Shown here in pieces: positions 1 to 15,311 of a stretch of 64,000 bases of DNA. The position numbers and the translations under genes were made by a program. The stretch is from Elusimicrobiota bacterium (lineage in GTDB: Bacteria > Elusimicrobiota > Elusimicrobia > JACQPE01), in contig JACQJO010000002.1 in assembly GCA_016205025.1 (NCBI GenBank), forward strand, positions 17,154-81,153, read 5' to 3'. How positions within the stretch are numbered: the first letter of the stretch is position 1; each line of letters begins with the position of its first letter. The notes under the pieces were generated by a model, which made no database searches, had not been told where the DNA came from, and saw only the letters and a list, made by a program, of their open reading frames with translations.

Positions 1-77
1 CTTGGATTCCGAAGGAATTCGAAACACCGTGCTGCGTACCTTTGGCGATAAGCTTCAGGAATTGCCCTCAATTAAGA

Positions 78-1055
78 ATGCTCTATAAAAACAAAACTGT
101 TCTGGTCACCGGCGGGACAGGTTTTGTCGGACTTAATATTGTTCAGGAGTTGCTCAAAACCCAAGCCAAAGTGCGCGTTCCCATCCATAAACGTCCGATG
201 GTCATCAAGAACAAACGCATTGAAACGCTGGACGCCGACTTAACCAGGCAGGAGGATTGCCTTAGAGCGCTGGGCGGAGTTGATTACGTTTTTCATGCCG
301 CCGGCCCCGTTGGCTCAGCTCTCGTGACGTCGAGTAAGCCCGCGCAAGCACTTGAAGGCATCACTACCAATCTAACGCTCACGGCGCAAATTCTTCAAGC
401 AGCTTGGGCCTGCGGGGTCAAACGGACCCTTATCTTTAGCAGCAGCGCCGGCTATCCAGCGGCGGATCATCCAGTTAAAGAGGAGGAGATGTGGTCCGGG
501 CCACCGCATCCTGCCTACTTCGGCTACGGTTGGATGAGACGCTACTTGGAACGTCTAGGCGAGTATGTCGCCTCCCGATCTACCATGAAAATTTCTATCG
601 TTCGTCCTACGGCCGTTTACGGCCGCCACGATAATTTTGATTTAAAAACAGGCCATGTAATCCCGTCACTGGTGCGCAGAGCCCTGGCGCGGCAAAATCC
701 TTTTATTGTTTGGGGAAACGGAGAAGAAGCTCGCGATTTTCTTCATATATCCGACTTGGCTCGGGGCTGCCTGCTTATGCTCGAAAAATATCCGGTCTGC
801 GATCCCGTCAATATCGCTTATGGGCGGTCATTTTCTATCAAAGAAATTACCCGCATCATATTAAAGGCTGCGGGCCACGGCGATGCCGAGGTGCAATTTG
901 ACGCTTCTCAACCCACAACCATCCCTTACCGAGCAACAGATATAACAAAGGCTAAAAAATTACTGGGGTTTGAACCAAAAATTACCCTGGAAGACGGGCT
1001 CATAGATACTATCGAGTGGTATAAATCACAGAAGGCCTCCATCCCACCGACGTAA
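78..1055 (+). CDS. NAD(P)-dependent nucleotide-sugar epimerase/reductase, extended SDR (GDP-L-fucose-synthase-like)
   Basis: Track ORF 42..1055 opens on TTG. The first ATG at 78 gives MLYKNKTVLVTGGTGFVGLNIV (GxxGxxG Rossmann). Size fits an extended SDR. FHAAG, IVRPTAVYG and RDFLHISD blocks present. Clear paralogue of 3250..4206. Confidence 0.75.
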   Translation: MLYKNKTVLVTGGTGFVGLNIVQELLKTQAKVRVPIHKRPMVIKNKRIETLDADLTRQEDCLRALGGVDYVFHAAGPVGSALVTSSKPAQALEGITTNLTLTAQILQAAWACGVKRTLIFSSSAGYPAADHPVKEEEMWSGPPHPAYFGYGWMRRYLERLGEYVASRSTMKISIVRPTAVYGRHDNFDLKTGHVIPSLVRRALARQNPFIVWGNGEEARDFLHISDLARGCLLMLEKYPVCDPVNIAYGRSFSIKEITRIILKAAGHGDAEVQFDASQPTTIPYRATDITKAKKLLGFEPKITLEDGLIDTIEWYKSQKASIPPT

Positions 1056-1192
1056 ACACCCGCCCCGGATTCCCATGCCCTCCTTGATAAGATAAGAATC
1101 CTATATTAAACTAAAGAGGGAGGTCTTCATTTTCAGCGAGGTAATACTATTGACTTAAGTATACGTATAAATAATAGCAAGATAACACAGAT

Positions 1193-3184
1193 ATGGATTC
1201 TCATAATATTAAAGTTGGCTTGGTCCAAATCAATAACAGTTTTTCTGACCAAAATTATTTTCCCTATTCAATTGGCACCCTGCAAGCCTATGCCCAAAAG
1301 AAATTAAGGCACCCGCAGGATTATGAATTTCTTTTGCCCATTTATAAACGATCATCCATCAACGAAGCGCTGGGGAAGCTTTCTGGCGCCGAGCTTATAT
1401 TTTTCAGCTGCTATGTTTGGAATTTTAGAATTTCTCTAGAAATTGCAAGGGCTGTTAAACAGAAAGAACCGGAAACGGTAATTATTTTTGGCGGACCCCA
1501 TGTTCCCGATCACCAAGATGCCCTGGAAGCATTTATGAGAGAGCATCCCTTTATCGATTTGGCTTGTCATGGGGAGGGGGAGCAGGTATTTGCCTCGATT
1601 CTTGAAAACTACCCCCTAAGAAATTGGGATGCCGTTGCTTCGATTAGTTTTTTAAGGAAAGACGATTCCCTTGCTCAGACGGCAAGGGCGGAAAGATTAA
1701 AAGATATTAGTATCATACCGTCTCCTTATACGGAAAAATTTTTCAAACAATTAATGGAAGCCAATCCGCAAGAAAAATGGATCGCGCTCTGGGAAACTAA
1801 TCGGGGGTGCCCGTTTTCTTGTACTTTTTGCGATTGGGGGTCAGCTACGCAAAGTAAAGTCTACCAGTTTAGCATGGAAAGGCTGACCCAAGAAGTTGAT
1901 TGGTTTGCCAAACATAAAATTGAATTTATTTTTTGCGCAGATGCTAACTTTGGAATCTTACCAAGAGATGTCGACCTTGTAAATTATGTGGCTAGCACCA
2001 AAAAAAAATATGGATATCCTCAGGCGCTTTCTGTTCAAAATACCAAAAACGCAACAGAACGCGCTTATAAGGTTCAAAAAATACTGGCGGATGCGGGACT
2101 AAATAAGGGTGTCGTCATTTCTCTCCAATCAGTTAATCCACAAACGCTTAAGGATATCAAGCGGGATAATATTAGCTCTGATTCTTTCCGGGAGTTACAG
2201 CGACGTTTTACACGAGATGGGGTGCAAACCATGAGCGATATGATCTTGGGCTTGCCCGGAGAAACATATGGGTCCTTTGCAGATGGGGTATCTTCCGTAA
2301 TACAGAGCGGTCAACACAATCGCATTCAATTTAACAATTTATCTATTTTGCCCAACGCAGAAATGGGCAATCCAGACTACCAAAAGCAGTATGGGTTGGT
2401 GATGGTGGAGTCTAAGGTAGTTAATATCCATGGAGCGCTAGCCCAGTCTCAAGATGAAATTTATGAAACCCAAATTTTGGTTGTTGGGTCCAACGCTATG
2501 CCCAAGCAGGATTGGGTACGAACCCGCGCCTTCTGTTGGATGGTAGCCCTGTTGCATTTTGACAAAATCGCCCAAATACCAATTATTTTGTTGCATCAAA
2601 TTTGCTCAATAAGCTATCGAGAACTCTTCGAAATTTTCTCCGAGGGCAACCTGGAGGCTTATCCTACGCTGCTAGAGGTGCGGGCATTCTTCCAAGAACA
2701 AGCTCGAGAAATACAGAATGGCGGGGTCGAGTATTGTTACTCCAAAGACTGGCTGGGTATTCATTGGCCTGCGGATGAATTTGTTTTTATTAAGCTATGC
2801 AGGGAAGATAAGCTGGATATTTTTTATAGAGAACTGGAAACAGTTATTAACAAATATCTTGAAGCTAAGCCCATCAAACTTCCATTGCTTCTCTTGCACG
2901 AGGCCATCGAGCTTAATAAATCTTTAATAAAAAAACCCTTTCAAAAAACAAATCTTAACTTAGAACTTTCTTGCAATATTTGGGAATTTTACCAGTCCAT
3001 TTTATCAGGGGCTCCTGTCTTATTGCAAAATAAACCTTCTCGATACCACATTGATAGGGTTGCCAATACTTGGGATTCCTGGGAGCAGTGGTGTCAGCAG
3101 GTTGTGTGGTACGGCAACAAAAGAGGGGCCTACCTCTATGCAAACAAACCTCTAGAATATCCCGACTTAGCTGGGCATTATTAG
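1193..3184 (+). CDS. Cobalamin-binding (class B) radical SAM enzyme
   Basis: N-terminal B12-binding-type Rossmann region (ELIFFSCYVW, VIIFGGPHVP) followed by the radical SAM cluster motif CPFSCTFC (CxxxCxxC). 663 aa with a long C-terminal extension carrying no motif I recognise. Confidence 0.8.
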   Translation: MDSHNIKVGLVQINNSFSDQNYFPYSIGTLQAYAQKKLRHPQDYEFLLPIYKRSSINEALGKLSGAELIFFSCYVWNFRISLEIARAVKQKEPETVIIFGGPHVPDHQDALEAFMREHPFIDLACHGEGEQVFASILENYPLRNWDAVASISFLRKDDSLAQTARAERLKDISIIPSPYTEKFFKQLMEANPQEKWIALWETNRGCPFSCTFCDWGSATQSKVYQFSMERLTQEVDWFAKHKIEFIFCADANFGILPRDVDLVNYVASTKKKYGYPQALSVQNTKNATERAYKVQKILADAGLNKGVVISLQSVNPQTLKDIKRDNISSDSFRELQRRFTRDGVQTMSDMILGLPGETYGSFADGVSSVIQSGQHNRIQFNNLSILPNAEMGNPDYQKQYGLVMVESKVVNIHGALAQSQDEIYETQILVVGSNAMPKQDWVRTRAFCWMVALLHFDKIAQIPIILLHQICSISYRELFEIFSEGNLEAYPTLLEVRAFFQEQAREIQNGGVEYCYSKDWLGIHWPADEFVFIKLCREDKLDIFYRELETVINKYLEAKPIKLPLLLLHEAIELNKSLIKKPFQKTNLNLELSCNIWEFYQSILSGAPVLLQNKPSRYHIDRVANTWDSWEQWCQQVVWYGNKRGAYLYANKPLEYPDLAGHY

Positions 3185-3249
3185 ACCCAAAACTGAAAAC
3201 CCAAGAATGATCGCAATCATCGCTTAACCCAGCATTGGCAACCGTTAAC

Positions 3250-4206
3250 ATGTTTTATAAAGGAAAAAATGTTCTAGTTACGGGAAGCAGCGGCCTTATT
3301 GGATCTCATCTTGTTCTTAAATTGCTAGAAGAAGGAGCGAATATTCGAGCAAGTTATCATCAAAAGCCTCCCATTGTAAAAAATGAAAAAATCCAATATC
3401 TATGCGGCGATTTAACTAAACGAGAGGACTGTCAAGAGTTGGTCGGGGGGATAAATTTTGTTTTCCACTGCGCAGCCAATTCCTTCGGCGCTTTTATAAC
3501 ACACAAAAATCCTATTGCCCAGATTACAGATAATGTTCTTATGAATGCGCAACTCTTGCAAGCAGCCCATGGCGCTAAAGTTGAACGCTTTTTGTATATT
3601 AGCAGTTCGGTTATTTATCCATCCAGCCAGATTCCAATTCAAGAAGAACAAGGTTTTACTGACGATCCTTACGATATTTATTTTGGCGTTGGATGGATGA
3701 AACGCTATGCGGAAAAACTGGCCCAGTTCTATCACCGCAGATACGGCTTGCGCGTAGCGCTGGTACGTCCTACTAACGTTTACGGACCTTACGATAAGTT
3801 CGATCCAGAAACATCCCATGTATTACCCGCCTTGATCCGAAAAGCTATTGAACGAACAGACCCCTATGAGGTGTGGGGCGATGGCAGCAACGTGCGCGAT
3901 TTTGTTTATGTTACGGACATGGTCCAAGCTCTGCTTCTGGCCATGGAAAGAGCTGTGGATGGCAAGCCTGTTAATTTCGGCTCAGGCATTCCCATAACCG
4001 TCAAAAAATCCGTAGAGCTTATTTTGAAACTTACAGGTTACAGCAACGCGCGCGTCATTTTTGACCCCGCCAAGCCTACTGCAATTCCTACCAGGCTTTT
4101 GGATCTAACTTATTCAAAAAAAGTTTTAGGTTTCCAAGCTCAAGTTTCGTTTGAGGATGGTCTTAAAAAGACCATTGATTGGTATCGCTCAACGCTCACA
4201 AACTAA
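3250..4206 (+). CDS. NAD(P)-dependent nucleotide-sugar epimerase/reductase, extended SDR (paralogue of 78..1055)
   Basis: Track ORF opens at TTG 3235; first ATG is at 3250. MFYKGKNVLVTGSSGLIGSHL Rossmann, FHCAA, LVRPTNVYGP and RDFVYVTD blocks. Shares the YFGxGWM(K/R)RY block with 78..1055. Confidence 0.75.
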   Translation: MFYKGKNVLVTGSSGLIGSHLVLKLLEEGANIRASYHQKPPIVKNEKIQYLCGDLTKREDCQELVGGINFVFHCAANSFGAFITHKNPIAQITDNVLMNAQLLQAAHGAKVERFLYISSSVIYPSSQIPIQEEQGFTDDPYDIYFGVGWMKRYAEKLAQFYHRRYGLRVALVRPTNVYGPYDKFDPETSHVLPALIRKAIERTDPYEVWGDGSNVRDFVYVTDMVQALLLAMERAVDGKPVNFGSGIPITVKKSVELILKLTGYSNARVIFDPAKPTAIPTRLLDLTYSKKVLGFQAQVSFEDGLKKTIDWYRSTLTN

Positions 4207-4209
4207 GCC

Positions 4210-4911
4210 ATGAAAACAACACTTTTCATTCCTATCAGAAATGAAATCGACGGTTTAAAACAGATCTTACCTATGATCAAAAAGGAATGGGTGGATGAAA
4301 TTATTTTCGTGGATGGCAACTCTACCGATGGTAGTTTTGAATATCTTAAAAATAACGGCTACTTCGTTATCAAACAGAAATCAAAAGGAACCTGCGGCGC
4401 TTATTGGGAGTGCTGTGAGGTGGCTAAGGGGGATATTATTATCGCCTTTAGTCCTGATGGGAACTCATTGCCGGAATTGATTCCAATTTTAGCGGAAAAA
4501 ATGAAAGACGGCTACGATATGGTTATCGCATCCCGTTACGCTGACGGGGCTAAAAGTTATGATGATGACTTCATCACAGCTTTTGGAAACTGGATGTTCA
4601 CCCAACTTGTGAATGTTCTTTTTTCTGCGCGCTATACGGATTCTATTGTTATGTTCCGTGCTTTCAAAAAAAACTTGTTAAGCCAATTGGAATTAACGAG
4701 CGGTAATCTTCCTGTTCTGGAAATGCAATTGACTATTGGTTGTGCTAAAAAAAAGCTCAAAGTGCTCGATATCCCTGGCGACGAGCCCATAAGGATCGGG
4801 GGCGTTCGGAAAATGAACCCTTTAATAAACGGGTGCGCTCTTCTATGGTGCGTTTTTTGGGAATGGATAACTTGGCGTCGGCAATCAAACGTCTATGGCA
4901 AAAATTTTTGA
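4210..4911 (+). CDS. Glycosyltransferase family 2 (small GT-A)
   Basis: LFIPIRNE ... IIFVDGNSTDGS ... IIAFSPDGN pattern typical of GT2/GT-A enzymes. Start lies 4 nt after the upstream stop. Confidence 0.7.
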   Translation: MKTTLFIPIRNEIDGLKQILPMIKKEWVDEIIFVDGNSTDGSFEYLKNNGYFVIKQKSKGTCGAYWECCEVAKGDIIIAFSPDGNSLPELIPILAEKMKDGYDMVIASRYADGAKSYDDDFITAFGNWMFTQLVNVLFSARYTDSIVMFRAFKKNLLSQLELTSGNLPVLEMQLTIGCAKKKLKVLDIPGDEPIRIGGVRKMNPLINGCALLWCVFWEWITWRRQSNVYGKNF

Positions 4912-5890
4912 GCGTGTTTTAATTACAGGAATTGCGGGCTCTGGGGGGAGCTACCTTGCAGAATATATTGACAATAATCATCCTCATGTTCAAATCCATG
5001 GAATAGTCCGTTGGCACAGCACAACGGCAACGCGTAATTTAGCGAGCATCGCAGACCGGATCACCCTTCATGAATGTGATATGAATGATCTTGGCTCCCT
5101 TGTGCGAGTACTCCAAATAACGAAGCCGGGAGCCATATTTCATTTAGCTTCCCATGCCAATGTGCACGCTTCTTTTCAAGCGCCGCTTGCCGTACTGAAC
5201 AACAATATCATGAGCACAGCTAATTTACTGGAGGCTGTTCGCTTAACAGGAATCCATCCCATTATTCAACTATGCAGCACTTCTGAGGTTTACGGCCAGG
5301 TCAATCCCAAAGATGTGCCTATAGAAGAAAACGCTCCTCTGCGACCAGCAAGTCCCTATGCAGTTTCCAAAGTAACCCAGGATTTATTGGGCTGGTCCTA
5401 TTTCATAAATTATAAAATGAAAATCATTAGAACCCGCATGTTTGCCTATATCAATCCTCGTCGAGATGATCTCTTCGCATCCTCCTTTGCGCGGCAAGTC
5501 GCAAGGATTGAAACGGGTCTACAAAAGGAACTGACGCATGGCAACCTAAATTCTGTTCGCACCTTGATTGACGTTCGCGATGCCATGGAATCCTATTGGA
5601 TCGCTTCGCTTCATTGCAAACCTGGAGAGGCCTATAATATCGGCGGCTTGACAGTGCTCAAAGTTGGGGATTTTCTAAATCGCCTTATTAAGTTAAGCAA
5701 GGTGCCTGTGCGCCTTAGGCAAGATCCGAAACTTTTAAGGCCTTCAGATGTCACTCTGCAAATTCCTTCGGTCAAAAAATTCACCAAGGCAACGGGCTGG
5801 AGACCAAGATATACATTTGAGGAAAGTTTAATTTTTCTATTAGACTACTGGAGACAGCAAACCAGGCGGGAAAAAAATTCGGCGGCATGA
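4895..5890 (+). CDS. GDP-mannose 4,6-dehydratase / GDP-6-deoxyhexose reductase (Gmd/Rmd) family SDR
   Basis: VLITGIAGSGGSYLAEYI Rossmann, STSEVYG, SPYAVSK (YxxxK). GNLNSVRTLIDVRD resembles the GNLDAxRD block of Gmd/Rmd enzymes. Overlaps the upstream gene by 17 nt. Confidence 0.65.
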   Translation: MAKIFERVLITGIAGSGGSYLAEYIDNNHPHVQIHGIVRWHSTTATRNLASIADRITLHECDMNDLGSLVRVLQITKPGAIFHLASHANVHASFQAPLAVLNNNIMSTANLLEAVRLTGIHPIIQLCSTSEVYGQVNPKDVPIEENAPLRPASPYAVSKVTQDLLGWSYFINYKMKIIRTRMFAYINPRRDDLFASSFARQVARIETGLQKELTHGNLNSVRTLIDVRDAMESYWIASLHCKPGEAYNIGGLTVLKVGDFLNRLIKLSKVPVRLRQDPKLLRPSDVTLQIPSVKKFTKATGWRPRYTFEESLIFLLDYWRQQTRREKNSAA

Positions 5891-7128
5891 ACGACTCCTT
5901 AAAGATCAATACCAAGCACGGCTCGAAGGAGGTTTCTTCTAAAAATGGAGATATTGGAAGACCTTTCAGGTATTACTTGGCCGAAGACACGATTGACCAA
6001 AAAGATATCAATCGCCTGATTGCCTGGCTAAAAAAATCTCCACGCCTAACAAAAGGCGAGGTCACTCTAAAATTTGAGGAAAAATGGAACCGTTGGCTGA
6101 AACGATCACACTCCGTATTTTGCAATTCTGGCTCCTCCGCTAATCTTTTAATGTACGATGCCCTCCTTCTATCGGGTAGACTCAAAAACAAAAAGGTTGT
6201 CGTCCCCAGCGTCGGCTGGGTCACAACAATAGCGCCAGCCATTCAGCTCGGATTCGAACCGATTATGTGCGAAGCGGATCCGGACACTTTCGGCCTCGAT
6301 CTTAATCATCTAGAGTCTACACTCAAAAAAGAACATCCTTCCACCGTCGTTTTAGTGCAAGTTTTAGGCATTCCCCATAAAATGAGAGAAATAATGATGC
6401 TGAAAGAAAAATATGGTTTTATTCTCCTGGAAGACGCTTGCGCAGCCATCGGGGCTTCCTACCATGGCCAAAACCTGGGGACCTTTGGTGATATGGCCAG
6501 TTTCTCGTTTTACTTCGGCCATCAATTTTCTACCATAGAGGGCGGCATGGTCTCGACCGACGATAAACAACTCAACGATCTTTTGCTCATGCTGCGTAGC
6601 CATGGTTGGAGCAAAGACCTGGATCGTGAAACACACAATGCCCTTGTGACTAGCCACAATATTGACGACTTCAATGCGCCTTTTGTTTTTTATGAACCCG
6701 GGTTTAACCTGCGCTCCACCGATCTGAATGCCTATATCGGCCTCGGGCAGTTGGATAAAATCGAATGGATTATCTCTCGACGGCAAAAAAATCACCATCG
6801 TTATAAAATGCATCTGGCTCAAAATTTTGTTATCCAAAAAAGCGACCCGGATTCTCGAGTTTGCAGCATACACTTTGGGCTCCTTGCGAAAGACACTGAG
6901 GAGCGGCGCCGCATTGTCCGCGCCCTAACTAACAATAGAATTGAGACGCGTATCTTTTCAGCCGGAAATCTAGGCCTCCATCCTTTTTGGGTTAAACGGT
7001 TTGGCAAAACCAGCTTTCCCATGGCGGATCGAATTCATCGCTGCGGTTTTTTCCTACCCAACAACCCGTCGCTTGGCATCAAGGATGTTGATTTCATTTC
7101 CCGGGTAGTTTTGGCTGGCAGACATTGA
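5887..7128 (+). CDS. DegT/DnrJ/EryC1/StrS-family PLP/PMP enzyme, probable nucleotide-sugar 3-dehydratase (ColD/E1-like)
   Basis: The block FSFYFGHQFSTIEGG aligns with FSFHxxKxxxxxEGG of sugar aminotransferases. It carries His at the Schiff-base Lys position, as in ColD and E1 3-dehydratases. ATGA overlap with the upstream Gmd-like gene. Confidence 0.7.
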   Translation: MNDSLKINTKHGSKEVSSKNGDIGRPFRYYLAEDTIDQKDINRLIAWLKKSPRLTKGEVTLKFEEKWNRWLKRSHSVFCNSGSSANLLMYDALLLSGRLKNKKVVVPSVGWVTTIAPAIQLGFEPIMCEADPDTFGLDLNHLESTLKKEHPSTVVLVQVLGIPHKMREIMMLKEKYGFILLEDACAAIGASYHGQNLGTFGDMASFSFYFGHQFSTIEGGMVSTDDKQLNDLLLMLRSHGWSKDLDRETHNALVTSHNIDDFNAPFVFYEPGFNLRSTDLNAYIGLGQLDKIEWIISRRQKNHHRYKMHLAQNFVIQKSDPDSRVCSIHFGLLAKDTEERRRIVRALTNNRIETRIFSAGNLGLHPFWVKRFGKTSFPMADRIHRCGFFLPNNPSLGIKDVDFISRVVLAGRH

Positions 7129-7142
7129 TCTTGGGTCACGAC

Positions 7143-8084
7143 ATGCCTTCGAGTAAAATTTTGGTAACCGGGGGCGCTGGTTATCTTGGTTCCATTTTAG
7201 TGCCGACCCTGCTTGAAAACGGTTTTCACGTAACGGTGATCGATAATTTTATTTACCGCCAGTCAAGCCTATTAGACATCTGCGCCAACAAGCGCTTTGA
7301 GGTAATCCGCGGCGATTGCAGGGATCCCAGTTTAATGAAAAACACTATAAAGGGAAAAGATATCATCATCCCATTGGCAGCCATCGTTGGGGCTCCCGCC
7401 TGCGATAACGATCGGGTTGCCGCCCAGACAACGAATGTTGATGCCGTTCGCATTGTGGCCAATCTGGCCTCGCGCTCACAAATGATAATCATTCCCACGA
7501 CAAACTCCGGCTACGGCATCGGCGCAAAAAATAAACTCTGCACTGAAGAAAGCGCCTTGAGGCCCATTTCGTTCTATGGCAAATCAAAAGTTCAGGCGGA
7601 AAAAATTTTAATGGATCGGGGCAATGCCATTAGCTTACGATTGGCTACGGTTTTTGGCTCCTCGCCCCGAATGCGCGTAGATTTACTGGTCAATAGTTTC
7701 GTTTATCGAGCTGTTTACGATCGGGCAGTCATAATCTTTGAAGGCCATTTTAAAAGAAACTACATCCACGTCCGTGACGTCGCAAAAGCTTTCCTCCACA
7801 GTATCAACCAATTCAATAAAATGAAAGGACGGGTTTACAACGTGGGACTAGAAAATGCCAATCTATCCAAAATTGAGTTGTGTCAAACGATTAAAAAAAT
7901 CATCCCATCATTCGTATTCCTGGAGGCCCCCGTAGGCGAGGATCTCGATAAAAGAGACTACATTGTTTCCAATGCGCGAATTCTGGCCACGGGCTATAAA
8001 CCCCATTGGACCATTGAAGATGGCGTGCGAGAATTGATTAAATGTTTCACAATAATGCGCAACTCCCAGGCAGGAAATAATTAA
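7143..8084 (+). CDS. NAD-dependent nucleotide-sugar epimerase/dehydratase (extended SDR)
   Basis: Track ORF opens at TTG 7125; ATG 7143 gives MPSSKILVTGGAGYLGSILV. YGKSKVQAEK (YxxxK) and NYIHVRDVA blocks present. Confidence 0.75.
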   Translation: MPSSKILVTGGAGYLGSILVPTLLENGFHVTVIDNFIYRQSSLLDICANKRFEVIRGDCRDPSLMKNTIKGKDIIIPLAAIVGAPACDNDRVAAQTTNVDAVRIVANLASRSQMIIIPTTNSGYGIGAKNKLCTEESALRPISFYGKSKVQAEKILMDRGNAISLRLATVFGSSPRMRVDLLVNSFVYRAVYDRAVIIFEGHFKRNYIHVRDVAKAFLHSINQFNKMKGRVYNVGLENANLSKIELCQTIKKIIPSFVFLEAPVGEDLDKRDYIVSNARILATGYKPHWTIEDGVRELIKCFTIMRNSQAGNN

Positions 8085-8106
8085 ATGCACCGCTGCACCG
8101 ATTGCG

Positions 8107-9156
8107 ATGATCATTAGTCGAACTCCTTATCGCATATCGTTTTTCGGTGGAGGCACGGATTACCCCGCATGGTATAAGGAATATGGCGGCCGCATTCTGG
8201 CGACCACTATAGATAAGTACTGTTACATATCAACGCGTTATCTGCCCCCTTTTTTTAAACATAACAGCCGAATCTTATATTCCAAGATCGAAGAGGTGAA
8301 CTCCGTCGATGAAATTCGCCATCCGGCTGTCCGAGAAATCCTCAAATATTTTCACATTCATGAGGGGGTAGAAATCCATCACGACGGAGATCTGCCAGCC
8401 AGGTCAGGTATCGGGTCAAGCTCTGCCTTTACAGTCGGACTCCTGCACACCCTCTTCGCCTTAAAGGAAAAGATGGTCGCCAAGATCCATCTGGCTAAAG
8501 AAGCTATCCGCATAGAGCAGCATATTCTAAAAGAAAACGTAGGTTGCCAGGATCAGGTTTCCGCTGCTTTCGGAGGTTTCAACCGCGTTGATTTTGCTCC
8601 AAACGATGAAATCAGCATAGTCCCGATCATCCTGAGCCAGGAACGTTTGAACGCTCTGCAAGACCACTTACTCCTCTATTTTACGGGCATTTCCAGGACC
8701 GCCTCGGAAATCGCTAAGGAGCAAATCAAAAAAACAAAGGAGAAAAAAAGAGAACTCACGCTAATGCGTGAGATGGTGGATGAGAGTATTTCTATCCTAA
8801 CGGGTACCCAGGATATGGGCGCTTTTGGGCGGCTACTACACGAACACTGGATGATCAAGCGGAGCTTAAGCAAAAATATTTCCTCAAATGTCATTGATCA
8901 AATTTATGAGAAAGCCCGAAATGCTGGAGCTATCGGAGGAAAAATTCTGGGCGCCGGCGGCGGGGGTTTCATGCTTTTATTTGCCCATCCAAAGGATCAT
9001 GCAAAAATTAAAGAAAAACTCTCGAACCTATTGCGTGTCTCCTTCAGGTTTGAAAACATGGGAAGTCAGATTATTTTTTATCATCCCAACATCTTGATTG
9101 AAGCCGGAAATATTTTCAATCGAAACGCGCAAGAACGGTTTAAGCTGCGCGTATAA
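8107..9156 (+). CDS. GHMP-family sugar kinase (D-glycero-D-manno-heptose 7-phosphate kinase HddA-like / fucokinase-like)
   Basis: MIISRTPYRISFFGGGTDYP N-terminus, GHMP motif II GDLPARSGIGSSSAFTVG and motif III GGKILGAGGGGFMLLF. Confidence 0.8.
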   Translation: MIISRTPYRISFFGGGTDYPAWYKEYGGRILATTIDKYCYISTRYLPPFFKHNSRILYSKIEEVNSVDEIRHPAVREILKYFHIHEGVEIHHDGDLPARSGIGSSSAFTVGLLHTLFALKEKMVAKIHLAKEAIRIEQHILKENVGCQDQVSAAFGGFNRVDFAPNDEISIVPIILSQERLNALQDHLLLYFTGISRTASEIAKEQIKKTKEKKRELTLMREMVDESISILTGTQDMGAFGRLLHEHWMIKRSLSKNISSNVIDQIYEKARNAGAIGGKILGAGGGGFMLLFAHPKDHAKIKEKLSNLLRVSFRFENMGSQIIFYHPNILIEAGNIFNRNAQERFKLRV

Positions 9157-10567
9157 CCCCAACCGCACGCCAATTTCCGAACGCCTTCGAAATTGTAATC
9201 ACCGCATAAGCCGCTAAAACCAAAAGTAAAGCTTTAGGTGGAATAAGGTAGCTGGGCAGCACTTTAATTGGAAGATACCCTGCCATGTAATAAAGAGGGG
9301 TAATCCACAGCACGTAGGTCGCCGTCCAGCGAGACCTGGCGAGCCAAATTCCTAATACCGCCAGAAGAAAAACTAAGCCTTCGCTCACCTTTCCCAAAAG
9401 TCGACCAAAAAATTGCCAGGGATAATAAATCAAGTACCCCCAGGAAGTGCCGCCTGATTTTAAGTAATCCACTAGCCAAGGCTCCCCGGAATAATGGCTG
9501 ATAATTGAATAAGGAAAAATAGTAAATAGGGATATTTGAGGCAGCAAGATGTTTCGCACATACCACCATGGATCCTCCCTGATGACACGCAAAGCTTTCT
9601 CCTTGCAAAAATTCATTCTTTCCACGGTCGCGCCCGCGTAAACAACACCTTTCTCTTCAAGCATAGCTTGTTCCACCGGCTTGTAACCCCAACGCCCTTG
9701 GGTATCTTCAAGCACGATACTGGAATAGATGCCATCCCATATGTGGGGAGTCAGCATAGCAAGGCGGCCTTCCAGCCGATAATTTCTGATGATGTAAGGC
9801 GCCATGCCGAGCAGCATCAACACCATAAGAACAGAAGAATACGCGAGCGCTTTTTTAAAGCCTTTCCAAAAAATCAGCCCGAAACCCCACACAACCGGAA
9901 ACATGAAAGGTTCCTCGCGCATATGCGTCCCGATAATCAAAATAAAGGCCGTCAGTAAAACTAAACGCCAGGAATCTTTTTGCATAGCCAGAATAAAAAA
10001 ATAAAGGGAGCTCAAAATAAAAACTGACATGAAACTGTCTTGATTGGGCATACAGGCAACCAGGGCGTTAGGCAGCCAGAAAGCATACATCCAGGCCGAC
10101 CATAGTCCAACACGATGGTCAAAAATAAGCAGGCCTATGCCATAGATAAAAAGACAAGCCAGGCTGTCCACGACAATTTGGATAATCCGGGCCGGCAAAA
10201 TGCGTTGGGCGCCGAAAAATTGTGTCACCGCCAGGAAAATGCTGTAGCCCGGAAAGCGTCCCCTCCAAAAAATCAGCTCTTCCCTATCTACCTTAACTTC
10301 ATTGGTTTCAATCATACGATGCTCACGTCTGGCGACCTCATGAACCGCTTTCTGGTAAACCTTGTTAAACACCAACCCCCGGCCAGCCAAAAGTTGGCGG
10401 CCGCAATCCCAGAATACATGCGGTTCATTTGGGCGGGTTGCTTGAAATTGGAACCTATAAAGACACGCCCCCCTTACAATTAAGGCGCACAAACACACCA
10501 AGACTAGCTGAAACTTATCGCCGCGGAAGATGTGAGGCACCTCCAATTTGAGATGAGCAATTATCAT
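9140..10567 (-). CDS. Multi-pass membrane protein, putative GT-C fold (ArnT/PMT-like) glycosyltransferase
   Basis: Many hydrophobic segments along about 475 aa. Track ORF opens at TTG 10585, but ATG 10567 is preceded by GGAGGAG at the right spacing. The 3' end overlaps the convergent kinase gene by 17 nt. Confidence 0.5.
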   Translation of the reverse strand: MIIAHLKLEVPHIFRGDKFQLVLVCLCALIVRGACLYRFQFQATRPNEPHVFWDCGRQLLAGRGLVFNKVYQKAVHEVARREHRMIETNEVKVDREELIFWRGRFPGYSIFLAVTQFFGAQRILPARIIQIVVDSLACLFIYGIGLLIFDHRVGLWSAWMYAFWLPNALVACMPNQDSFMSVFILSSLYFFILAMQKDSWRLVLLTAFILIIGTHMREEPFMFPVVWGFGLIFWKGFKKALAYSSVLMVLMLLGMAPYIIRNYRLEGRLAMLTPHIWDGIYSSIVLEDTQGRWGYKPVEQAMLEEKGVVYAGATVERMNFCKEKALRVIREDPWWYVRNILLPQISLFTIFPYSIISHYSGEPWLVDYLKSGGTSWGYLIYYPWQFFGRLLGKVSEGLVFLLAVLGIWLARSRWTATYVLWITPLYYMAGYLPIKVLPSYLIPPKALLLVLAAYAVITISKAFGNWRAVGVIRAA

Positions 10568-10614
10568 ATTTGAACTCTCCTCCAAAAATTCCCACCTCGG
10601 ACCTCGGCGCCTTG

Positions 10615-10643
10615 TTGATATTTGATGATTTCTGGGTTATATT
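10615..10643 (+). promoter_or_regulatory. Candidate sigma70-like promoter (TTGATA-17 nt-TATATT) in the divergent gap
   Basis: TTGATA at 10615..10620, a 17-nt spacer, then TATATT at 10638..10643. The predicted start site would leave a leader of only about 10 nt before ATG 10660, clipping the weak AAAGG Shine-Dalgarno. Confidence is therefore low. Confidence 0.25.
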
Positions 10644-10659
10644 ATAGAAAGGTAAAAAT

Positions 10660-12327
10660 ATGGAACCTATTAGCGAAACACCCTCGGGCACGCGGTCAAT
10701 CTTTGACCCAAGGAGCAAGGCGGCATCGGTCCATATTAGCTTAATTCATCCACCGACTCTAACCAGCGCCGATGCGTATGGTTTAGACGTCGTACCGCCC
10801 CTAGGCCTTGCGTACGTTGCCGGCGCTTTAAAAAGTGTCGGGTATCAGGTTTCTCTCGTGGACGGCATTGGCGAAGCCCTTCATCGGTATGGCCGCGCTT
10901 CAGGATATGACGACCTTCTTATTCACGGTCTGTCTCCATCCGAGGTGATTGATCGCATTGATCCTCGAGCCGACATAATTGGTCTAAGCAATATGTTCTC
11001 AAATCAGTGGCTATTTATTCAGGACCTGGCAATGGCGATCAAGAAAGCCTATCCAGACAAACTCCTGGTTCTGGGCGGCGAACACCCCACCGCCTGTGCC
11101 GATTACATCATCCAAAGCTGCCCAGACATTGATGTATGCGTTCTGGGCGAAGGCGAGGAAACCATCCTTGATTTAGCCGACGCTTACAGACAGGGAAAGG
11201 GCTTCCATAATGTAGCGGGTATCGTATTTCGAAACGACCAGAAGGCGGTAATGACGCCAAAACGAGCTCGCATCAGAGAAATCGATGAAATTCCTGAACC
11301 GGACTGGTCACTTGTGCCTGTCGAAACTTACATTGACAACGCGTGTACCTACGGCGTCAATGTCGGCCGGGCGATGCCGATCTTGGCCAGTCGCGGATGT
11401 CCATATCAATGCACTTTCTGTTCCAGCCCACAAATGTGGACCACGCGCTGGAGTGCCCGAAAACCCGATCTGCTCTTAGCCGAAATGAGAAGGTACATTG
11501 AGCGCTACAATGTCACGAACTTTGATTTTTATGACCTGACCGCCATTGTCAAAAAACAATGGATTATTGATTTTTCCCAACTGCTGATTAAAGAAAAGCT
11601 CAACATAAGGTATCAATTAGCCTCCGGCACAAGAAGCGAAGCCATTGATGAAGATGTCATTGGCTTGTTGCGCGAATCAGGCTGCCGGCTGGTTATTTAC
11701 GCGCCCGAGAGCGGGTCGGTTGAAGAACTGCGTCGAATCAAAAAGAAGGTTAATATCGATAAAATGCTTAGCTCAATGCGCGCCGCGCACGATGCAGGCA
11801 TGGAAACCAAAGCGAATATGATCTTCGGCATGCTTGGCGCGACATGGAAGGATGTTTTTCACTCGTTCATGTTCATTTTTCGTACCGCCGCTGCCGGGCT
11901 GGACAATATGACATGCTACCCGTTCTCACCATATCCTGGTTCCGAGAATTTTCAGACGCTGCTCGCGACCGGGCGCATAAAAATGAACAACGACTACTTC
12001 AAAAGCCTCCAAAATTTGTGCCGAAATCTCCACACAAAAAATACCGTGTCGTATAACGATAGATTCAGCGGAAAAGTCCTTTCGCTTATCTGTTCATGCG
12101 CATTCATCATCTTCTATTCTCTCAATTACCTGATCCGGCCATGGCGAATCGCCGCTCTCTTATACACCTATTTGATAAAAAAAGAGGCGTCTTCTCTTCT
12201 TACCGTAGCCTTTTTAAACATGCGTAAAAAGCGAGCAGCGATAAAGACCATCAAAACCAACCACATCGATAGCGTGATCATTCCGGTCAATCTTCGGGTG
12301 CACAATACAGACGCCAAGCACGCCTAA
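10660..12327 (+). CDS. Cobalamin-binding (class B) radical SAM enzyme with hydrophobic C-terminal tail
   Basis: B12-binding-type N-domain (IIGLSNMFSNQW, LLVLGGEHPT). Cluster motif CPYQCTFC. TM-like segment VLSLICSCAFIIFYSLNYLI near the C-terminus. Confidence 0.8.
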   Translation: MEPISETPSGTRSIFDPRSKAASVHISLIHPPTLTSADAYGLDVVPPLGLAYVAGALKSVGYQVSLVDGIGEALHRYGRASGYDDLLIHGLSPSEVIDRIDPRADIIGLSNMFSNQWLFIQDLAMAIKKAYPDKLLVLGGEHPTACADYIIQSCPDIDVCVLGEGEETILDLADAYRQGKGFHNVAGIVFRNDQKAVMTPKRARIREIDEIPEPDWSLVPVETYIDNACTYGVNVGRAMPILASRGCPYQCTFCSSPQMWTTRWSARKPDLLLAEMRRYIERYNVTNFDFYDLTAIVKKQWIIDFSQLLIKEKLNIRYQLASGTRSEAIDEDVIGLLRESGCRLVIYAPESGSVEELRRIKKKVNIDKMLSSMRAAHDAGMETKANMIFGMLGATWKDVFHSFMFIFRTAAAGLDNMTCYPFSPYPGSENFQTLLATGRIKMNNDYFKSLQNLCRNLHTKNTVSYNDRFSGKVLSLICSCAFIIFYSLNYLIRPWRIAALLYTYLIKKEASSLLTVAFLNMRKKRAAIKTIKTNHIDSVIIPVNLRVHNTDAKHA

Positions 12328-12352: not shown

Positions 12353-13906
12353 TTAGGTGATTCCGTCTCTGTTTGGGTTTGTTTGTTTAGAGGTAATACG
12401 GTCCAAATCGCTTTGACTGATGTTCCAGAACGGCCGCTGGGCGAGCGCGTCATTCTCAAATCGTGGATCAGCGGTATGCCTGCGTATATTCATAAATGAT
12501 TGGCGTAAGTGCCACCAGTAAACGATACCGCTCCAGTTAAGCAGGCCAAAAAACTTAGCTTCGGAAAACCAAAATGACTTGTCCGCCAAAGTGGCCACAA
12601 GTTTAACAATTGGATTGGCGGGCCATTTCAACAAAAATCTAGCCGCGCCCTCAAACAGCGACCACTTTGCAACGAACTGGAACATATTATTAAAGATCTT
12701 AAGCTTTTCGGTATCTTTATGCGTTACTGTTGGATAAATCCCCCGGTTAAAGTATTCCACGGAATAATCAGAGGTCAACATGCCATGATCCATTGCATAC
12801 TCAGTGAGTTTTGTACCAGGGAAAGGCCAAAATAACGCCGATCGGGCGGATGTAACTCCTATCGTGTTGTTAAAACGAGCCGTTTGAAAAGCCTCCTCTA
12901 ACCCTTCGCCCGGAAGGCCTATGATATTGCCCGTATGAAATGGAATTTTATACTCTTTGAGGTAACCACAATTTTTCAGGTACAGATCATCAGCAAGGTC
13001 CTTATCAATAAGCCCCCTACGAGTCTTTTCGTTGCCGGATTCAACACCAAAGGTCAGGCCGACGCAACCGTTTTCTTTAAATAACTCAACCATTTTCCGT
13101 GACATGTGGGCGATCCAAATGTTGGCCGACCAGGGAATTCCAATTTCTTTCCAATATATAGGAAGAAACTTCTCAACCCAAGTCTTACTCAAGGAAAAAA
13201 TATCATCGACATAATGAATGCGGCGCAGGGGATACTTTTCCCTTGTGGCTTTCATTTCAGCTATAACGCGGGGGATGCTTTTTCTGCGAAAAAACTTGCC
13301 CTTGCCGTCGTAAATTTCTCGGTAGTTATTAATGTAGCAAAACGAGCATTTATAAGCGCAACCGAAAGAGGTGATAAAGCGTTTTAAGGGCAGTTCCTGC
13401 AAAAACGGATAACGCCAATAAATAGTTCGATCGGGCATAGCTACGTTGTCCCAGTCATCCATTAAAGGCCGTATCTCATTTTTAATGATCCCTCCATCGG
13501 GCGACTTGATATGGATGTTGGGGATATTGTCCGTGCGTCCTTTTATGGCCATGCGGTTTAAAAGATCGACCACTGGCTGCTCACCCTCACCGACGCAAAG
13601 ATAATCGGCGTTGCAGTGCGAAAGAGTCTCCGGATACATGGTTGGATGCGTGCCGCCAATTAAAATGGGGACATCCAAACCCCGGCGTATCTTGTTGATT
13701 TTATTGATGGCCCATTCCTGCTGCCTGGTCATAAAAGAGAAAGCCAAAAGATCGGCTTTCGCATCCTCGATTTGTCCGATAAAATCCCGCTCCTCGGATT
13801 CGATCAAAAGATCGCATTCATGTCCGGCGGCTTTCACCACCCCGGCAAGGGCATGAATACCCAGGGCCTCATACATGGGGCTTTCCTGTAAAAACAATAC
13901 TTTCAT
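12353..13906 (-). CDS. Cobalamin-binding (class B) radical SAM enzyme
   Basis: MKVLFLQESPMYEALGIHALAGV..., LLAFSFMT and ILIGGTHPT B12-binding-type N-domain. Cluster motif CAYKCSFC. Confidence 0.8.
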   Translation of the reverse strand: MKVLFLQESPMYEALGIHALAGVVKAAGHECDLLIESEERDFIGQIEDAKADLLAFSFMTRQQEWAINKINKIRRGLDVPILIGGTHPTMYPETLSHCNADYLCVGEGEQPVVDLLNRMAIKGRTDNIPNIHIKSPDGGIIKNEIRPLMDDWDNVAMPDRTIYWRYPFLQELPLKRFITSFGCAYKCSFCYINNYREIYDGKGKFFRRKSIPRVIAEMKATREKYPLRRIHYVDDIFSLSKTWVEKFLPIYWKEIGIPWSANIWIAHMSRKMVELFKENGCVGLTFGVESGNEKTRRGLIDKDLADDLYLKNCGYLKEYKIPFHTGNIIGLPGEGLEEAFQTARFNNTIGVTSARSALFWPFPGTKLTEYAMDHGMLTSDYSVEYFNRGIYPTVTHKDTEKLKIFNNMFQFVAKWSLFEGAARFLLKWPANPIVKLVATLADKSFWFSEAKFFGLLNWSGIVYWWHLRQSFMNIRRHTADPRFENDALAQRPFWNISQSDLDRITSKQTNPNRDGIT

Positions 13907-14066
13907 AGAGGGCTCATCCTATATTATTCTTACCCCTAAATCTAAGAAATTCAAGAGGGGTACCGGGGATAATAAGAAATTTTGCGCCCCGAAGCTTAAA
14001 AAGGGGTGAGTGGGTCGCGCGAAAACTCAGCGACCCCTCATTTTGATAGAGTTTCCAAGGGAGATC

Positions 14067-15311
14067 ATGCGCCGGATCATTAAGTTTATTGTGTCTGCGG
14101 GGGAGATGGCCGGAATTTATCTTTATTGGAGACTCCGCGGGGACGCCTTTCAACCACTTCAAGCCGGGCAATCGTGCAAAATCCTGGTTTTCGGCTACTG
14201 CGGTTTAGGCGATATGATTTTTCTTCTGCCCACGCTGGAACACCTGCGCCGCTCATTTCCCCAAGGCCGCATCACCATCATCACCGGTCCTCGTTCAGCG
14301 GCCAATGAGCTGGTTCAAGAAACTCACGCCGATAAGCACTGGTCCATTGATTGGACCCGCGCCTCCTGGAGCGAACGCTTGGCCGTCTGCCGGAGAATTC
14401 GCGAGCAAAACTTTGACGCCTGTTTAGTCAGCTACCCCAATCCGGTGCGTTTTTTTCTTTTAGGTCTTTTCACTATCCCCCGGCGCGTCGGGCATTGCCG
14501 CCGACTTGTTTGCAACTACCCTTTAGGTTTGAAATGGCTTAAAACCAAATTTTACAGCGCCATCTGGGAAGAAGAGATGTACCGTTCATTTCTGTTTAAC
14601 AAACGCATACTGATCAATATCAACCAGTCCGAACGCCATGACGTCCAAAAAAATCTGGAGATGGCTATCTCGCTTCACCCGGATGCCGCGCCGGCGATTC
14701 AAGATGGCCCTCATTTAGCTATCCCTGCCGCGTCGCGGCAGTTTGCCGCGTCGCTCCTGCAAAACGCGGGAGGGGGAAACAACGCCCCGATCGCTTTAAG
14801 TTTGGGGGTCAGCCGCCAAATGGATTGGAAAAGGTGGAAAATTCAAAAATTCGCCCATCTCCTAGAAAAAATTAACCAAAAGTTTCCATCCTCTCTTTTA
14901 CTTCTTGGAACCTCTGAAGAGACCGGGTTAAACGAAGAATTCCGGCGTTATTATAAGGGCCCGATCATCGATGCCTTAGGCAAATCCAACGTTTATCAAA
15001 CAGCGGCTCTGCTGGAGCAATGCCGCCTTTTTGTAGGCAATGACTGCGGTCCGGCCAAATTAGCCATGGCGCTGGGAATTCCGACTGCGATTATCTGGGG
15101 GCCGTCGGACCGGCAGGGAGCCGGTCCCTGGAAAAAAGGACCTTTTAAAACGATCCATAACAATATGCCCTGCAGTCCTTGTTTCGCGGCTGGGATGCTT
15201 AAGATGGGCGAAGGGGTCATTAACCACACCAACTGCGGCCATCACAACTGCTTGCGCGAGCTTACCGTTGATTTCGCCTACCGACAAATCGAAGAGCTTT
15301 TAAAAAAATAA
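14067..15311 (+). CDS. Glycosyltransferase family 9 (heptosyltransferase-like)
   Basis: ILVFGYCGLGDMIFLLPTLEHLRRSFPQGRITIITGP and GNDCGPAKLAMALGIPTAIIWGP match the two GT9 signature regions. Track ORF opens at GTG 14010. ATG 14067 is preceded by AGGGAG. Confidence 0.75.
   Translation: MRRIIKFIVSAGEMAGIYLYWRLRGDAFQPLQAGQSCKILVFGYCGLGDMIFLLPTLEHLRRSFPQGRITIITGPRSAANELVQETHADKHWSIDWTRASWSERLAVCRRIREQNFDACLVSYPNPVRFFLLGLFTIPRRVGHCRRLVCNYPLGLKWLKTKFYSAIWEEEMYRSFLFNKRILININQSERHDVQKNLEMAISLHPDAAPAIQDGPHLAIPAASRQFAASLLQNAGGGNNAPIALSLGVSRQMDWKRWKIQKFAHLLEKINQKFPSSLLLLGTSEETGLNEEFRRYYKGPIIDALGKSNVYQTAALLEQCRLFVGNDCGPAKLAMALGIPTAIIWGPSDRQGAGPWKKGPFKTIHNNMPCSPCFAAGMLKMGEGVINHTNCGHHNCLRELTVDFAYRQIEELLKK

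Follow-up and report, generated by a model that had tools for sequence, protein, structure and literature searches.

The window analysed here is a 64,000-bp stretch of contig JACQJO010000002.1 from an Elusimicrobiota bacterium (assembly GCA_016205025.1, positions 17,154–81,153). Close to its left edge, at 1193–3184 on the forward strand, lies an ATG-initiated gene for a 663-aa cobalamin-dependent (class B) radical S-adenosylmethionine (SAM) protein of the TokK/CysS clade, a putative C-methyltransferase, referred to below as the rSAM protein. The gene order around it, established with Pfam and NCBIfam, is that given in a preliminary description made from the sequence alone: a short-chain dehydrogenase/reductase (SDR), the B12-binding rSAM protein, a second SDR, a family 2 glycosyltransferase (GT2), a Gmd/Rmd-like protein, a 3-dehydratase-like protein, a further SDR, and a GHMP kinase. 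All genes are on the same strand and, as had been noted, tightly packed: the ATGA overlap at 5887–5890 is present, and the remaining junctions are gaps of 3–50 bp or overlaps of 4–17 bp, apart from the widest gap, 137 bp, immediately 5′ of the rSAM gene.

The first SDR (78–1055, +; Pfam Epimerase, E = 2e-46) is an extended epimerase/reductase resembling GDP-L-fucose synthase (Fcl model, 155 bits, below the cutoff). Its start is probably the ATG at 78, called on the overlapping short-read contig L016, while the longest open reading frame (ORF) begins at TTG 42. The second Fcl-like SDR (3235–4206, +) is indeed its paralogue (42% identity) and fills the slot taken by an aldo-keto reductase (AKR) in most orthologous loci; the closest solved relatives of both SDRs are GDP-fucose synthases. 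The GT2 (4210–4911, +; Glycos_transf_2) is of the polyprenyl-phosphate type, i.e., AglJ, dolichyl-phosphate-hexose transferase or ArnC-like, with sub-cutoff scores of 89 bits (AglJ) and 55 bits (DPhHxTase). It is followed by a GDP-sugar 4,6-dehydratase-like SDR (4895–5890, +; GDP_Man_Dehyd, E = 3.8e-64), whose best solved relative is GDP-D-glycero-D-manno-heptose 4,6-dehydratase (7us5, 183 bits), then Rmd (2pk3). True aminotransferases of the DegT family have a lysine at the position of ColD His188. The DegT-family protein at 5887–7128 (+) carries histidine there, and its best solved relative is ColD/WbdK (2gms, 170 bits), which bears out its earlier designation as 3-dehydratase-like; we annotate it as a ColD-type sugar 3-dehydratase dependent on pyridoxal or pyridoxamine phosphate. 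The operon is completed by an extended GalE/RmlD-like SDR (7125–8084, +; Pfam Epimerase and RmlD_sub_bind, NCBIfam matches at family level only), probably a ketoreductase or epimerase, and a GHMP sugar kinase (8107–9156, +; GHMP_kinases_N/_C) closest to the heptose-7-phosphate kinase HddA (148 bits against a cutoff of 600). A GT-C membrane glycosyltransferase gene (PMT_2/ArnT-like; 9140–10585, −; PMT_2, E = 1.1e-10) converges with it.

At the other end, the window opens within the 3′ end of the second gene of a split transketolase (1–88, +; Transket_pyr/Transketolase_C), recognized by Pfam and by the overlap with L016. This contig agrees with the window at 8,853 of 8,853 bases and reaches 1,665 bp further upstream, where a Transketolase_N gene (L016 positions 81–851) and a Transket_pyr/Transketolase_C gene (848–1753) directly precede the first SDR (Pfam); hence, the operon starts upstream of the window edge. 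An identical rSAM protein is encoded on both L016 and another short-read contig, L017. Window and L016 together place a 4,6-dehydratase, a 3-dehydratase, a thiamine diphosphate (ThDP) enzyme, and a reductase in one cluster. By similarity, every window partner that can be classified (ColD, GDP-heptose dehydratase, Fcl, HddA) appears to point to GDP-sugars. A hexose and a heptose substrate are both compatible with the window operon, which contains no GmhA, GmhB, or HddC. The promoter and terminator scan of 1–10700 did not rise above shuffled background, and Rfam and tRNA scans of the window gave no matches, a cobalamin riboswitch included.

In the rSAM protein, Pfam recognizes a B12-binding domain (aa 65–136; 35.9 bits against a cutoff of 32.1) and a Radical_SAM domain (aa 202–363, E = 2.7e-15). 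The preliminary description had identified both a B12-type N-terminal domain and the [4Fe-4S] motif CPFSCTFC, which occupies aa 206–213 (C206-x3-C210-x2-C213) and whose three cysteines are invariant in an alignment of 21 homologues with 59–68% identity, the basis of all statements on invariance below. The protein thus has both attributes of class B radical SAM enzymes, CxxxCxxC within the core and an N-terminal Rossmann-type cobalamin-binding domain. An AlphaFold2 model built from the 21-sequence alignment reached a mean predicted local distance difference test score (pLDDT) of 81.6 and a predicted template modelling (TM) score of 0.83; its Rossmann domain (pLDDT about 80–95) superposes on TokK. 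The top Foldseek match of the model is TokK (TM 0.78 over 640 columns, C-terminal domain included), followed by CysS (TM 0.66–0.68 over 648–696 columns), while OxsB reaches just 0.46–0.49 and AprD4 is also among the weaker matches. The model displays the three-domain TokK/CysS architecture, including the large C-terminal domain. Since the Foldseek match spans it, the C-terminal region of about 300 aa, in which no recognizable motif had been seen before, is a substrate-binding domain of the TokK/CysS type. In the TokK paper this domain was termed “distinct to TokK” and forms part of the substrate channel; in both TokK and CysS, pantetheinylated substrates are held in a channel that it partly builds.

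Among distinct solved structures, only TokK and CysS are matched by sequence at E ≤ 0.01: TokK (7kdx) with 333 bits in a nearly gap-free alignment over aa 19–481, and CysS (9n1b) with 207 bits. Identity to TokK amounts to about 29% overall, rising to 40% in the core (aa 65–392). The best NCBIfam model is that of the KedN5 family of methylcobalamin-dependent C-methyltransferases (NF033712), matched with 275.7 bits over aa 64–416 of the protein and positions 61–410 of the 624-position model, which leaves the C-terminal half of the protein uncovered and does not reach the cutoff of 700 bits; weak NCBIfam matches are HpnJ, BchE, and AprD4. The rSAM protein had previously been compared with GenK, Fom3, TsrM, and HpnP. 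Its assignment to the class B methylases is upheld by similarity to TokK, CysS, and KedN5; the likeness to the four named enzymes is not, the iterative methylases TokK, CysS, and KedN5 being the closest characterized relatives.

The cofactor machinery of the rSAM protein, as far as can be read from these alignments, looks intact. It shares the motifs SCYVWNF and ETNRGCP..C..C.WGS with TokK, and W76 in the former aligns ungapped with TokK Trp76. In TokK this residue is positioned beneath the corrin, a setting shared by CysS, and gives base-off/His-off binding of cobalamin. W76 is invariant, as are the equivalents of TokK Trp215 and Leu383 (W215 and L383). A missing cobalamin module, named in the preliminary description as an outcome that would speak against the class, is by homology not what we see, given the Pfam match above the cutoff, the confidently modelled Rossmann domain, the superposition on TokK, and W76. 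On the substrate side, TokK Arg280, which anchors the carbapenam carboxylate, is replaced by Ser280 (invariant), Glu19/Tyr20 by Asp19/Gln20 (Q20 invariant), and Tyr410 by Val410. This loss of carbapenam contacts fits a substrate different from that of TokK. At the same time, GQHNRIQFNNL (373–383) and many C-terminal residues are invariant, and R53, K305, R377, R445, and K458 are likewise unchanged throughout the family. Judged by these residues, the substrate pocket is remodelled yet strongly constrained.

We conclude that the rSAM protein is a class B radical SAM enzyme with TokK/CysS architecture. It lies outside the TokK and KedN5 functional families, since the KedN5 cutoff is not reached and both the TokK substrate residues and a carrier or pantetheine context are lacking, and forms part of a sister radiation whose substrates are probably of another class. 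This radiation is large. At E ≤ 1e-10, a word-indexed search gave over 7,700 homologues, the full-length ones at E = 0. The top 120 are all full-length, with 59–68% identity, and, where taxa are named, come from cyanobacteria (Kovacikia), Betaproteobacteria, Omnitrophota, Gemmataceae, Nitrospirota, and Chloroflexota; further loci were found in Patescibacteria, Elusimicrobiales, and metagenome-assembled genomes of Rhodospirillaceae. An exhaustive search of 50%-identity representatives yielded 1,853 clusters at E < 1e-30; the best 150 of these all score at or above the TokK level, with no informative names among them. In the core, the identity of TokK to the rSAM protein falls within the range seen for paralogues from glycan clusters (39–48%). 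In a rough, unbootstrapped neighbour-joining tree, TokK nests among environmental representatives, with CysS outside them.

The genomic context of the orthologues was assessed in loci from reference genomes (11, single-protein scan), metagenomes (80, alignment scan), and several annotated contigs. The main census was made by tblastn with reference proteins for each family on 45 non-redundant orthologue loci (53–66% identity) with at least 8 kb of flank. Its counts are lower bounds because flanks are limited. The census relies on contigs of limited length, and its reference proteins came from the same set of loci. An earlier census of 77 loci, based on our own ORF calls and Louvain clustering, undercounts partners in GC-rich loci, as long antisense ORFs (clusters 9 and 15) displaced real genes; e.g., the frequency of ThDP enzymes was 76% there versus 93% by tblastn.

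Genes for nucleoside diphosphate (NDP) sugars are found in 44 of the 45 loci, a context that supports the nucleotide-sugar or glycan substrate proposed earlier from the operon partners. By the same count, the orthologues do not occur in lipid or tetrapyrrole contexts, the outcome that had been named as refuting if consistent. Neighbouring SDRs, whose conservation had been put as a question, are retained: Fcl-like SDRs occur in 40/45 loci, and either an AKR or an Fcl-like SDR in 43/45. The AKR, present in 31/45 loci, begins close to the rSAM gene (median distance 17 bp), and because of this spacing the two are probably translationally coupled; in the earlier census the +1 position was held by an AKR in 41 and by an Fcl-like SDR in 15 of 77 loci. 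Besides the reductases, the strongest conserved partner is one that lay outside the view of the preliminary description, a ThDP enzyme (42/45), in the form of a pyruvate dehydrogenase E1 alpha/beta pair, a split transketolase, or a YerE-like acetolactate synthase homologue. The nucleotidyltransferases of sister loci are ManC/HddC-like guanylyltransferases (26/45). GHMP kinases are found in 25/45 loci, DegT proteins and 4,6-dehydratases in 23/45 each, and GT2 in 11/45. Nineteen of 26 distinct DegT neighbours have histidine at the ColD His188 position and are hence 3-dehydratases rather than aminotransferases. SAM-dependent methyltransferases of the Methyltransf_25-like or TylF-like kind lie near 18/45 orthologues. 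Two loci (L014 and L015) contain SIS (GmhA-like) and HAD (GmhB-like) genes together with HddC, i.e., a complete GDP-heptose route, and L015 also encodes a YerE-like enzyme of the acetolactate synthase type. L014 belongs to a cultured cyanobacterium, Kovacikia minuta CCNUW1 (CP083582.1, about 6.765–6.787 Mb), whose orthologue is P0024.

More distant paralogues (31–43% identity; P0140/L098, P0158/L101, P0181/L099, P0211/L100) are likewise situated in glycan clusters, beside SDRs, glycosyltransferases, GHMP kinases, Wzm/Wzt-type ABC transporters, a TylC3-like C-methyltransferase, and further B12-rSAM genes. L098 combines two modules about 8 kb apart: a 43% paralogue adjoining the TylC3-like gene and a 53% orthologue in an E1alpha–E1beta–rSAM–AKR module. 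No ORF resembling an acyl or peptidyl carrier protein (ACP/PCP) was detected in 98 loci when every ORF of 55 aa or more was searched with three queries, a search of limited sensitivity; the annotated gene tables of the sampled loci contain no PP-binding, polyketide synthase (PKS), nonribosomal peptide synthetase (NRPS), or beta-lactam genes. With homologues at E = 0 and the sugar context recurring in 44 of 45 independent loci, the combination of context and similarity is far beyond chance.

These data establish the domain architecture and fold of the rSAM protein, the conservation of its cofactor residues and gene neighbourhood, and the size of its family; from them we infer methylase activity, a GDP-sugar substrate, and an order of steps. 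Our reading, to which we assign a probability of about 0.6, is that the rSAM protein acts as a cobalamin-dependent C-methyltransferase with radical SAM chemistry and TokK/CysS structure, tailoring a branched 3,6-dideoxy sugar that is GDP-linked and resembles yersiniose. A GDP-hexose or GDP-heptose would be 4,6-dehydrated by the 4895–5890 product and then 3-deoxygenated by the ColD-type enzyme (5887–7128). The ThDP enzyme, here the split transketolase encoded upstream, would attach a short carbon branch to the 4-keto carbon, like YerE in yersiniose synthesis; branching at C4 is suggested by this analogy. The rSAM protein, by homology with TokK and CysS, would use one SAM to methylate cob(I)alamin, yielding methylcobalamin, and cleave a second SAM at its [4Fe-4S] cluster to a 5′-deoxyadenosyl radical. 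In the sugar nucleotide, this radical would take a hydrogen atom from an unactivated sp3 carbon; the substrate radical so formed would receive the methyl group from methylcobalamin, once or more. The adjacent reductase, an Fcl-like SDR here and an AKR in most orthologous loci, would then reduce the remaining carbonyl, after which the GT2 would load the finished sugar on polyprenyl phosphate and the GT-C enzyme transfer it outside the cytoplasm. Delivery as a lipid-phosphate donor outside the cytoplasm is suggested by the occurrence of a polyprenyl-phosphate GT2 and a facing GT-C gene; from this pairing, the GT-C enzyme (9140–10585) likely uses the polyprenyl-phosphate sugar made by the GT2.

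The pathway logic is that of yersiniose, in which a 4,6-dehydratase and 3-deoxygenation are followed by the ThDP enzyme YerE and the reductase YerF, with relatives ErwE and ErwF (PMC9306805). The same set of steps is found in the rSAM operon, and the presence of a ThDP enzyme in 42/45 loci argues for a GDP-series analogue of yersiniose-type branched-sugar synthesis. Differences are evident as well. Yersiniose belongs to the CDP series, whereas the relatives seen here (ColD, Fcl, GDP-heptose dehydratase) indicate GDP; in the orthologue loci, the role of ThDP enzyme usually falls to an E1 alpha/beta pair or a split transketolase; and the described yersiniose-type pathways have neither a cobalamin-dependent rSAM enzyme nor a second reductase, both of which are added in the rSAM operon. 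Two other pathways share parts of the operon. The colitose pathway (Gmd, ColD, ColC) has its counterpart in the ColD-like 3-dehydratase with the catalytic histidine and in the flanking Fcl/ColC-like SDRs, and GDP-heptose modification in Campylobacter jejuni in the dehydratase closest to GDP-D-glycero-D-manno-heptose 4,6-dehydratase and in the HddA-like kinase. Unlike the operon, neither of them involves a ThDP or rSAM step, and all operon scores are below the equivalog cutoffs.

Among enzymes, TokK and ThnK, the methylases of the carbapenem C6 alkyl chain (7kdx, 7kdy), are the closest to the rSAM protein, with the same cobalamin Rossmann domain, rSAM core, and C-terminal helical domain. Their setting is a beta-lactam cluster rather than GDP-sugar tailoring, and no pantetheine or carrier logic is apparent here. 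CysS, the iterative methylase that converts the cystobactamid methoxy group to larger alkoxy groups (9n1b-d), is the second solved relative. Functional precedent on sugars exists within the same enzyme class: GenK, GenD1/GntE, and Fms7 of aminoglycoside pathways act on carbohydrate carbons, as does MoeK5 on a sugar of moenomycin. Their substrates are pseudo-oligosaccharide or lipid-linked antibiotic intermediates; none is known to act on nucleotide sugars of surface glycans. None of GenK, GenD1, Fms7, and MoeK5 appears in the PDB and NCBIfam match lists of the rSAM protein, and no direct sequence comparison with them was made. All are listed as cobalamin-dependent rSAM methylases in a 2026 review (PMC12931638), and the earlier remark that such chemistry has little precedent outside aminoglycosides is therefore nearly right, MoeK5 being the addition. 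Literature searches, with subscription journals mostly outside coverage, yielded no link of cobalamin-dependent rSAM enzymes with nucleotide sugars, heptose, yersiniose, or O-antigen.

That the substrate is a GDP-linked intermediate of this pathway seems probable to us; the position of the methyl group is a more tentative matter. We lean towards the terminal carbon of the ThDP-installed side chain, as one possible placement. The rSAM gene is seldom found without a ThDP enzyme, yet yersiniose and erwiniose branching proceeds without an rSAM enzyme (PMC9306805), an asymmetry suggesting that the rSAM step depends on the branch. Furthermore, the presence of one more reductase, closely coupled to the rSAM gene, fits a side chain with a keto group, and TokK starts alpha to a carbonyl, after which its clade extends terminal methyl groups. 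Scarcely less likely, though doubtful in itself, is placement on the sugar backbone, with the same enzyme class and GDP-sugar, at C6/C7 (chain extension) or at C3/C5 beside the 4-keto group. GenK, GenD1, Fms7, and MoeK5 do methylate backbone carbons, GenK extending at C6′, and Fom3 acts at a CH2OH carbon. The window dehydratase and kinase resemble GDP-heptose enzymes, GHMP kinases occur in 56–75% of loci, the ThDP enzyme is missing from three loci that carry the rSAM gene, and the first four methylases just named are listed in PMC12931638. Nevertheless, the link to the ThDP enzyme (42/45) is much tighter than that to the 4,6-dehydratase (23), 3-dehydratase (23), or kinase (25), and in the nearest characterized relatives it is side chains that are extended, at terminal methyl or methylene groups, rather than ring carbons. 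Elongation of a sugar-borne O-methyl group to O-ethyl or O-isopropyl, in the manner of CysS on methoxy groups, is unlikely. It would accord with CysS as second-closest solved relative and KedN5, itself proposed to extend an O-methyl group like CysS, as best NCBIfam model, and with the methyltransferases near 18/45 orthologues; but just 40% of loci hold such a candidate O-methyltransferase within 10 kb, and the window operon has none, the nearest being at 18555. One further idea, that the rSAM protein converts the C7 CH2OH of a 6-deoxyheptose to the 8-deoxy-octose backbone of erwiniose, was rejected: the ThDP enzyme ErwE forms erwiniose (3,6,8-trideoxy-4-C-hydroxyethyl-octose) by using a longer keto acid as donor, and no rSAM enzyme takes part (PMC9306805).

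Other explanations depart further from methylation of a GDP-sugar. The enzyme could act after the nucleotide-sugar stage, on a polyprenyl-phosphate-linked sugar or an assembled glycan, as MoeK5 acts on a lipid-linked sugar. In the window, a polyprenyl-phosphate-type GT2 gene follows the rSAM gene after a single intervening gene of about 1 kb; GT2 genes directly adjoin the rSAM gene in three loci (L012, L019, L020), and one of the distant relatives carries a fused GT2 domain. We nonetheless find this improbable, as GT2 genes accompany 11/45 orthologues versus 40–43/45 for soluble reductases that normally act on NDP-sugars, and the model, whose globular fold of three domains resembles soluble TokK, shows no evident membrane segment. 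A reaction other than methylation, e.g., rearrangement, ring contraction, or C–C bond formation on the sugar as catalysed by OxsB, HpnJ, or BchE, is supported by the existence of non-methylases in class B (PMC12931638) and the weak matches to HpnJ, BchE, and AprD4 (NCBIfam) and to OxsB and AprD4 (Foldseek). TM scores of 0.78 and 0.67 for TokK and CysS versus 0.46–0.49 for OxsB, 333 and 207 bits versus no sequence match, and retention of the tryptophan under the corrin common to TokK and CysS make it quite improbable. Least credible of all is a pantetheine- or carrier-bound small molecule as substrate, with the sugar genes incidental. Both solved relatives bind pantetheinylated substrates, but the sugar context holds across many phyla, neither carrier-like ORFs nor PKS, NRPS, or beta-lactam genes were encountered in the searches described above, and the carboxylate anchor R280 of TokK is lost.

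Several observations weigh against our reading of the rSAM protein as a methylase of a GDP-linked branched sugar. Both solved relatives, TokK and CysS, bind pantetheine-tailed substrates rather than nucleotides, and a score of 276 bits, far under 700, does not license transfer of function from KedN5. A nucleotidyltransferase, GmhA, GmhB, and HddC were sought in the window operon, and none was found. Three loci (L002, L082, and L086) have no ThDP enzyme within 10 kb, and in L002 the rSAM gene stands among housekeeping genes, with just Wzy_C and GT2 genes 5–9 kb away. Finally, gene neighbourhood does not distinguish between candidate carbons for methylation, nor between an NDP-sugar and a later, lipid-linked substrate.

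To our knowledge, almost all cobalamin-dependent rSAM methylases described so far belong to antibiotic or cofactor pathways, and deoxysugar C-branching has so far been the domain of enolate-type TylC3 methyltransferases and ThDP branching. If correct, our reading would define the first cobalamin-dependent rSAM methylases acting on nucleotide sugars of cell-surface glycans, in a family of more than 1,800 clusters at 50% identity, and radical C-methylation would be a new reaction type in deoxysugar biosynthesis. It predicts sugars so far undescribed and would explain the relevance of B12 to envelope synthesis in many uncultured bacteria. In the literature we found, solved class B structures comprise TsrM, OxsB, TokK, Mmp10, and now CysS only; for late-stage alkylation, the family is a source of new TokK-like catalysts that are probably soluble. 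Their putative substrates are accessible enzymatically, starting from GDP-mannose or GDP-heptose and using enzymes of the operon itself. The interest of the family rests on its very large size, its unusually consistent context, and a hypothesis testable with operon-encoded enzymes. More speculatively, and with low confidence, iterative radical methylation may build longer alkyl groups (ethyl, isopropyl) on GDP-linked branched deoxy-sugars, giving in many uncultivated phyla a class of rare sugars that glycan databases do not yet contain, and TokK/ThnK may be specialized offshoots of this far larger, glycan-dedicated radiation.

Unusual architectures occur within the wider family. Many members of about 1,000–1,120 aa (e.g., P0122, P0124, P0126, P0152, and P0237) bear an intein (Intein_splicing/Hint, often with a LAGLIDADG homing endonuclease) in or next to CxxxCxxC, at the equivalent of aa ~205–212 of the rSAM protein; P0237 apparently has two Hint modules. 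P0234 (876 aa, 31% identity) is a fusion of the same rSAM type with a C-terminal GT2 domain, and P0136 and P0145 (about 1,280 aa) are tandem double B12-rSAM proteins. Some clusters contain two or three B12-rSAM genes of the wider family, as in L100 (868–2820, 10746–12659, and 12656–end) and L012 (1099–3018 and 10001–11965). Such multi-rSAM glycan clusters also hold two ThDP enzyme pairs and Rieske and PhyH oxygenases, which suggests that they make very heavily tailored sugars.

The operon itself is part of one continuous glycan-biosynthesis island that takes up positions ~1–47000 of the window. Two more B12-binding radical SAM proteins are encoded there, at 10660–12327 (+) and 12353–13906 (−). 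They are 19–22% identical to the rSAM protein and belong to other subfamilies, the former with weak BchE/Sden_1168-like matches; relatives of the two were seen near 6 of the 45 orthologue loci. Radical SAM proteins with SPASM domains are encoded at 15325–16383 (+), adjoining a GT9 heptosyltransferase-like gene (14010–15311), and at 27954–29201 (−), beside GFO/IDH/MocA oxidoreductases and a UDP-glucose/GDP-mannose dehydrogenase. A TylC3-type NDP-hexose C-methyltransferase (22205–23479, +; Methyltransf_13/14) followed by an SDR (23483–24541, +) constitutes a separate, conventional C-methyl-branching module. At least four pairs of a small GT2 and a PMT_2-type GT-C protein are scattered over the island (4210/9140(−), 21064(−)/19077(−), 31710, 33670/34379, and 36507/37537(−)), suggesting several parallel polyprenyl-phosphate-sugar decoration systems; the 659-aa protein at 19077–21056 has no Pfam match. 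The island also contains a Wzx-like flippase (30324–31640, −), Glyphos_transf and CTP_transf_3 proteins, an AsnB-like amidotransferase, several SAM-dependent methyltransferases, an NTP_transferase, and a GT4. Beyond it lie housekeeping genes, including Mrp/ApbC, PepA, IspH (55266–56252, +), FolE, Dus, and a T2SSE ATPase. The top named matches of IspH, with 62–72% identity, are all from metagenome-assembled genomes of Elusimicrobiota, in agreement with an uncultivated member of this phylum as the source. Just past the island, at 49402–50217 (+), a Peripla_BP_2 periplasmic binding protein of the BtuF/siderophore type is encoded, which might be linked to corrinoid uptake for the three B12 enzymes.

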